From IMG/VR virus record IMGVR_UViG_2663762992_000009: a DNA stretch of 28,397 nt; one strand, written 5' to 3'. The translations under genes were made by a program, and so were the position numbers. Source of the stretch: a virus. Lineage: Duplodnaviria > Heunggongvirae > Uroviricota > Caudoviricetes. This document shows positions 7,468-7,543 of the stretch, piece by piece. Each line of letters opens with the position of its first letter. The first letter of the stretch is position 1. Under the pieces are notes generated by a model that worked only from the letters and a program-made list of their open reading frames with translations, was not told where the DNA came from and made no database searches.

Positions 7468-7543
7468 TGGAGCGGGCAGCGGGAATCGAACCCGCATCAT
7501 CAGCCTAGAAGGCTGATGCTCTATCCTGATGAGCTAATGGCGG
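7468..7543 (-). tRNA. tRNA-Arg(UCU)-like; acceptor stem pairs poorly as read, possibly a degenerate or pseudo tRNA
   Basis: Minus-strand D-arm (GCTC...GAGC), anticodon arm TCAGC-CTTCTAG-GCTGA (anticodon UCU), T-arm GCGGG-TTCGATT-CCCGC and encoded CCA. The 5' acceptor strand CCGCCAT does not pair with the 3' strand TGCCCGC. Confidence 0.5.

Follow-up and report, generated by a model that had tools for sequence, protein, structure and literature searches.

A probable arginine-glycine hybrid tRNA pseudogene produced by a 77-nt deletion in the late region of a lambdoid prophage

We analyzed a stretch of 28,397 nucleotides of caudoviral DNA (IMG/VR record IMGVR_UViG_2663762992_000009; hereafter the window) and found that a 76-nt tRNA-like element on its minus strand, running from its 5' end at 7543 to 7468, is a real feature and is, with a probability of about 0.93, a hybrid tRNA pseudogene in which one 77-nt deletion joined the front of a tRNA-Arg(UCU) gene to the back of the neighboring tRNA-Gly(UCC) gene. 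The exact parentage, the junction, the size of the deletion, the collinear flanks and the missing acceptor helix can each be read directly from the DNA and from sister prophages that still carry both parental genes. The original prediction had described a tRNA-Arg(UCU)-like gene with an acceptor stem that does not pair. That description is accurate, but only nt 1-37 derive from tRNA-Arg; nt 38-76 come from tRNA-Gly(UCC).

The element retains most of what makes a tRNA recognizable. Read along the minus strand, its 5' half consists of CCGCCAT, TA, GCTC, ATCAGGATA, GAGC, A, TCAGC and CTTCTAG, and it continues 3' of the anticodon loop with GCTGA, TGAT, GCGGG, TTCGATT, CCCGC, TGCCCGC, T and CCA. 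These segments form a D stem of 4 bp, an anticodon stem of 5 bp and a T stem of 5 bp with a TTCGATT loop; the anticodon is TCT (UCU) at 7509-7507, and CCA is encoded at the 3' end. The coordinates 7468-7543 and the recognizable D, anticodon (UCU) and T arms with the encoded CCA had thus been placed rightly by the original prediction, on the minus strand. Its observation that CCGCCAT and TGCCCGC are unpaired also holds: only two of the seven acceptor positions form standard pairs (C-C, C-G, G-C, C-C, C-C, A-G, T-T), against 7/7 in all ten intact relatives extracted from related loci. Compared with the canonical tRNA (RF00005), the element has the D arm, the anticodon arm with its 7-nt loop and the T arm with a TTCRANY loop, and lacks the 7-bp acceptor stem between nt 1-7 and nt 66-72.

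Covariance scoring, gene finding and folding give the same picture of an intact body and an open end. The Rfam tRNA model matched the element at 7479-7536 with 44.8 bits, above its gathering score of 29, and this alignment covers model positions 8-63 only, with zero non-canonical pairs and with the acceptor stem lying outside it, whereas in the intact sister array the two parents align over model positions 1-71, Arg with 61.1 and Gly with 60.9 bits. ARAGORN called no tRNA at the hybrid in the window or in the three other contigs that carry an Arg/Gly hybrid (L007, L014 and L003), and its only call in the whole window was the CAU tRNA at 7547-7623, so that the element has neither a full-length covariance-model match nor a gene-finder call. 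In the predicted RNA fold (both minimum free energy and centroid) the acceptor helix is absent and the 5' nine bases are single-stranded, while the predicted folds of the intact Ile, Arg and Gly relatives each close a 7-bp acceptor stem; the thermodynamic fold also pairs C32 with G38 and U33 with A37, which would narrow the anticodon loop to 3 nt. The sequence ATGGCGG, the complement of the 5' acceptor strand, is absent from the 300 nt on either side of the element. The original prediction had allowed that its boundaries might have been misread; the silent gene finder, the partial Rfam match and the absence of ATGGCGG show that they were not. A downstream ATGGGCG was considered as a displaced acceptor strand and rejected: it would give 5/7 pairs, and the intact sister locus has ATGAGCG at that position.

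The parentage of the element is provided by sister prophages, which we retrieved through contigs encoding exactly the DoxX protein of the window. Two of them (L012 and L015) carry an intact array on one strand, with tRNA-Ile at 3327-3403, tRNA-Arg(UCU) at 3407-3483, a 1-base spacer and tRNA-Gly(UCC) at 3485-3559; the strain of CP046278.1 is one carrier of the intact array. The element of the window is the concatenation of nt 1-37 (or 38) of the Arg gene and nt 37 (or 38)-75 of the Gly gene of L012, with zero other substitutions. An exhaustive breakpoint scan returned one junction with two equivalent placements around the shared A37, and the informative sites switch only once: 14/14 are Arg-type 5' of the junction and 15/15 are Gly-type 3' of it. 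The features of length change sides likewise, as the D loop has the length of the Arg gene and the variable loop (4 nt) that of the Gly gene. Neither parent can account for the whole: from nt 39 on, 0/14 informative sites are Arg-type, and the resemblance to tRNA-Gly(UCC), which is confined to the 3' 38-39 nt, is lost with the anticodon UCU and with nt 1-27, where 0/13 informative sites are Gly-type.

In window coordinates, all on the minus strand, the Arg-derived part (nt 1-37, 7507..7543) is identical to nt 1-37 of the tRNA-Arg(UCU) at L012 3407-3483 and comprises the 5' acceptor strand, the D arm, the 5' strand of the anticodon stem and the anticodon UCU. The crossover interval lies in the anticodon loop at 7505..7507, where T36 (7507) is Arg-specific, A37 (7506) is shared and G38 (7505) is Gly-specific. 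The Gly-derived part (7468..7505) is identical to the 3' end of the tRNA-Gly(UCC) at L012 3485-3559 and comprises G38, the 3' strand of the anticodon stem, the variable loop, the T arm, TGCCCGC, the discriminator T and CCA; this 3' sequence is also present in the Gly tRNAs of three further arrays (L004, L005 and L006). A comparison by segments agrees: through position 26 the element matches the argN-type gene of phage PhiR49_2 without a mismatch, and from the anticodon stem to CCA, outside the anticodon loop, it has 0 mismatches to the tRNA-Gly(UCC) of the arrays. Two alternative placements were rejected: G38 as a mutation acquired after the fusion (the array Gly genes of E. coli have A38) is ruled out by the sister array, whose Gly gene has G38, and a crossover in the T arm is ruled out by the informative sites, which put the switch in the anticodon loop.

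The surroundings of the element are those of the intact array. The 3-nt spacer AAA (7544..7546, minus strand) is the same as that between Ile and Arg in the intact sister array, and the flanks of the window match those of L012 and L015 at 99.9% over 900 nt upstream and at 97.2% over 1,093 nt downstream. The downstream flank of the hybrid (7340..7467, minus strand) is collinear with the DNA downstream of tRNA-Gly in the arrays that retain this gene, and in L004, L005 and L006 it has 77-88% identity to DNA that lies 55-60 nt past the Gly gene. What the window lacks relative to the Ile-Arg-Gly array is the stretch from the 3' part of Arg through the spacer into the 5' part of Gly, and the tandem of 153 nt less the hybrid of 76 nt gives the 77 missing nucleotides. 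The two parental genes are also homologous at the junction. Their anticodon arms (TCAGC-CTTCTAA-GCTGA in Arg and TCAGC-CTTCCAG-GCTGA in Gly) are identical at 15/17 positions, are direct repeats 78 nt apart in the intact array, and contain the longest exact run common to the two genes, the 9-nt TCAGCCTTC. All three marks of a deletion hybrid were therefore found: the element is an exact concatenation of two parents, these lie side by side in the same orientation between collinear flanks, and they are homologous where they join.

These observations suggest a simple origin. An ancestral prophage would have carried tandem Ile2(CAU), Arg(UCU) and Gly(UCC) genes between the Q-like antiterminator region and the holin gene, and a single recombination or replication-slippage event between the anticodon-arm repeats of Arg and Gly would have removed 77 nt (the last 40 nt of Arg, the spacer base and the first 36 nt of Gly) and rejoined the two genes in register. 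In the product, Arg would contribute the 5' acceptor strand, the D arm and the anticodon, and Gly the variable loop, the T arm, the 3' acceptor strand and CCA; each arm survives intact because the exchange rejoins both genes in register, and the acceptor strands cannot pair because they derive from two different genes. From the repeats at the junction we infer short-homology recombination or replication slippage as the probable route of the deletion. The crossover itself falls at a single shared base between the two mismatches of the array, outside the 9-nt exact run, a position that fits a heteroduplex between imperfect repeats and would be compatible with more than one pathway. The direction of the change, from intact array to deletion, is the one suggested by parsimony and by how widely intact homologues of Arg and Gly occur. 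The hybrid has acquired no later substitution and its carriers are near-identical, which indicates that the deletion is probably recent. Elsewhere in the window (19492-23648, plus strand) there are ORFs for a RecE-like exonuclease (1,034 aa) and a RecT-like annealing protein (351 aa), names that we took from matches to records of phages HK225, mEp237 and Gifsy; these proteins could have supplied the short-homology recombination activity behind the deletion.

When directly repeated tRNA sequences recombine, one repeat unit is deleted and one recombinant gene is left, and the tandem tyrT/tyrV genes of E. coli are reportedly the classical case of unequal recombination or deletion between tandem tRNA genes. 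In that case the partners are said to be near-identical isoacceptors and the product works, whereas the parents of the window hybrid accept different amino acids; the acceptor strands of the hybrid are mismatched because its partner genes share only the anticodon arm. Our search of the literature on ileZ/argN/argO, on hybrid or chimeric tRNA genes and on the tRNAs of 933W returned no description of the window array or of the hybrid. A chimeric tRNA gene has been described at an integration junction in Rickettsia peacockii, where it arose by a different mechanism (PMC2791219).

Among the sister prophages the locus occurs in three states, namely the intact array, the hybrid and a decayed remnant. 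The hybrid recurs in L014, where 5,435 nt match the window at 100%, and in 3 further similar places, as well as in the IMG/VR contig L007, which is 99.96% identical to the window with 3 differences, all of them elsewhere. At the same position, L013 (3404-3457) and L016 have the Ile tRNA followed by a heavily decayed Arg remnant whose D and T arms are largely gone; these loci have a different lysis cassette (family-2 holin, lysozyme and DUF2514), and the decayed remnant was the commonest state among the contigs read. A look-up for relatives through the holin found nothing, and a search of IMG/VR for the intact Arg-Gly junction gave 0 matches. The first gene of the array, an intact ileZ-type CAU tRNA (7547..7623, minus strand; called by ARAGORN and scoring 71.2 bits in Rfam over model positions 1-71), is its sole survivor in the window; it is about 89% identical to ileZ of Stx2 phages, and PGAP labels its E. 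coli homologues tRNA-Ile. The original prediction had considered a decayed tRNA next to this intact CAU tRNA, which was correct in that an almost certainly non-functional remnant lies beside it, and was mistaken as to the cause, a deletion fusion of Arg and Gly and not mutational decay.

The array belongs to a known family of phage tRNA clusters. The ileZ-argN-argO cluster (in Stx2a_F349, AP012530.1, and in PhiR49_2) occupies the same place, with the Q antiterminator on one side and the lysis or stx genes on the other, and the CAU tRNA together with the 5' part of the element is about 88-89% identical to the ileZ-argN pair of Stx2 and lambdoid phages, in a match that ends inside the T arm. The relation to the ileZ-argN family that had been proposed is borne out for the 5' half, the first 27 nt of the element being identical to the argN-type tRNA of PhiR49_2. 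In the known clusters the Arg(UCG) and Arg(UCU) genes are intact and have 7/7 acceptor pairs, whereas in the window the second gene is fused to Gly and argO has no counterpart. Closer to the window locus, as its direct parents or cousins, are the Ile-Arg-Gly arrays of L012 and L015 and the Ile-Arg/Lys-Thr-Gly arrays of L004 and L006, in all of which the Ile gene, the 5' half of Arg and the 3' half of Gly match those of the window exactly or almost exactly and the flanks are collinear with it. The array of L004, from an E. coli prophage, reads Ile(CAU)-Arg(UCU)-Thr(UGU)-Gly(UCC), and variants of it are found in L005 and L006. The second slot of these arrays holds an Arg-type body with a varying anticodon, which may be UCG (argN, in L001 and L002), UCU or UUU. 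Copies of this slot lie at 1160-1236 of L006 and at 1842-1915 of L005, both on the minus strand; one copy is 74 nt long and has no readable anticodon, and the UUU version is labeled tRNA-Lys by PGAP in many E. coli genomes.

A second Arg/Gly hybrid was found in E. coli E7-1N7 (NZ_CP134805.1; L003 2504-2579, minus strand). Like that of the window, it joins a 5' part of Arg to a 3' part of Gly, has 2/7 acceptor pairs and is called by neither ARAGORN nor PGAP. Unlike that of the window, its junction lies 3' of the anticodon stem, with the Arg-type GTTGA strand kept, and its deletion is of about 157 nt, includes the Thr gene and points to an origin in a four-gene Ile-Arg-Thr-Gly array; in related E. 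coli genomes the hybrid sequence is interrupted by about 157 nt that include this Thr gene. Because the junction differs and the relatives carry the Thr-containing insert of about 157 nt, we take the E7-1N7 hybrid to be an independent event. Such hybrids are scarce: one was found among 5,426 complete E. coli genomes, about 497 of which have intact arrays, a search for the hybrid pattern in IMG/VR returned only L007, and a pattern combining an Arg-type D arm with a Gly-type 3' end over the length of a single tRNA occurred in 0 of the representative genomes of 185,579 species. Arg/Gly hybrids are rare accidents and form no maintained class.

The element might instead be a single tRNA-Arg(UCU) whose acceptor stem has decayed through accumulated point mutations. 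The Arg-type 5' half and anticodon, and the truly decayed Arg remnants at the same position in L013 and L016, speak for such a history, yet the 3' 39 nt match Gly(UCC) at 15/15 informative sites and have the 4-nt variable loop of Gly, so that decay would need at least 14 substitutions and an indel, all of them recreating Gly, while leaving zero damage in the D, anticodon and T arms. Such decay is extremely unlikely and in effect excluded, since the 3' half is an exact match to the Gly gene. That an assembler collapsed two adjacent tRNA genes has a practically negligible probability: the parents do have a short repeat in common at the junction, but their exact shared run of 9 nt is far below the k-mer sizes of assemblers, and the same hybrid is present in assemblies from separate sources (the window, L007 of IMG/VR and GCA_037004945.1 of NCBI, with the similar places).

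We also weighed the reading of the element as a functional, non-canonical RNA, a stable tRNA-like product of the late operon that would serve as a substrate of anticodon nucleases, or as a decoy whose Arg-type anticodon draws nucleases of the host or of competitors, or else as a processing signal that aids the 3' maturation of the upstream Ile tRNA. Its three arms are predicted to fold well, it immediately follows a functional tRNA in the late transcription unit, the hybrid is unchanged across several assemblies and a similar hybrid arose independently in E. coli; if the functional reading were true, the recurrent Arg/Gly hybrids of different prophages would reflect selection and not accident. 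However, the carrier loci are 99.96-100% identical, which speaks of recency and is uninformative on selection, and the presence of one hybrid in 5,426 E. coli genomes and its absence from the representatives of 185,579 species fit a rare neutral or mildly deleterious accident. The Gly-derived G38 moreover pairs with C32 in the fold, leaving an anticodon loop of 3 nt, and no compensatory change restores acceptor pairing. We consider a functional RNA very unlikely. The non-canonical structure that the original prediction had offered as its other option was wrong, since the mismatch is explained by strands from two genes joined by the 77-nt deletion.

The placement of the deletion hybrid between Q and lysis had been predicted from the DNA and is confirmed, since the locus is a lambdoid late region with a Q-like gene upstream and a holin gene downstream. 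Upstream of the tRNAs on the minus strand are DUF1367, YbcO and then a DUF1133/antiterminator-Q-like gene (9808-10347), followed between the Q region and the array by a gene for a DoxX-family membrane protein (8015-8449, minus strand), apparently a cargo gene, with the identical protein recorded in 182 index blocks of the public collection; downstream of the tRNAs is a family-3 holin (6867-7211, minus strand). Just downstream of the Q-like gene, Rfam also matched the STnc100 sRNA (9018-9195, minus strand, 66.2 bits), and this match ends with a strong terminator-like hairpin (9049-9028) and then a run of T. Its position and shape are those expected of a late-promoter leader RNA, and we infer that it may be one on which Q acts.

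At the other end of the prophage lies the integrase gene (25950-27197), and the last 4.2 kb of the window (24189-28397) are 100% identical to contig L008, in which the prophage adjoins ttcA-dbpA. Between ttcA and the integrase are a 402-aa ORF for which no Pfam family is recorded (27189-28397, minus strand) and an NA37-family gene. The sequence places the host in an Escherichia lineage, because the dbpA-ttcA flank matches the Rac/intR site of E. coli at up to 96.8% identity; the same flank is only 80-86% identical to the representatives of Salmonella, Citrobacter and Kluyvera. Salmonella had been a candidate host on account of STnc100, the Gifsy matches and a TtcA protein at 95%, and was ruled out by the ttcA DNA, which is only about 84% identical. 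The lineage may be a divergent one, as the flank does not exceed 96.8% identity to E. coli and the prophage region was found in 0 of the complete E. coli RefSeq genomes.

RNase P and aminoacyl-tRNA synthetases need the acceptor helix. Deprived of the coaxial acceptor/T helix, the hybrid transcript would be neither matured by RNase P nor charged by a synthetase, and, judged by its structure alone, the hybrid is almost certainly non-functional. Because these enzymes need the acceptor helix, the prophage appears to have lost both its Arg(UCU) and its Gly(UCC) tRNA and to keep only Ile2(CAU).

For annotation, the element is a trap: with an Rfam score above threshold and a clean UCU anticodon, covariance-model pipelines could report a tRNA-Arg that is impossible as a folded tRNA, and a check of acceptor-stem pairing or a comparison with the neighboring genes reveals such false tRNA calls. 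For the prophages, it is a case of ordinary gene loss and no novel type of RNA; tandem tRNA genes are already known to undergo deletion, this example is new, and nothing in it would surprise a specialist. It does resolve cleanly how genes are lost from phage tRNA arrays, as one step of 77 nt ruins two genes for different amino acids, and the sequences argue that Arg/Gly hybrids formed at least twice independently, in the window prophage and in E. coli E7-1N7. The Ile2(CAU) gene, whose product reads AUA, is kept in all three states of the locus (intact, hybrid and decayed remnant), which hints that it may be under the strongest selection among the members of the array.
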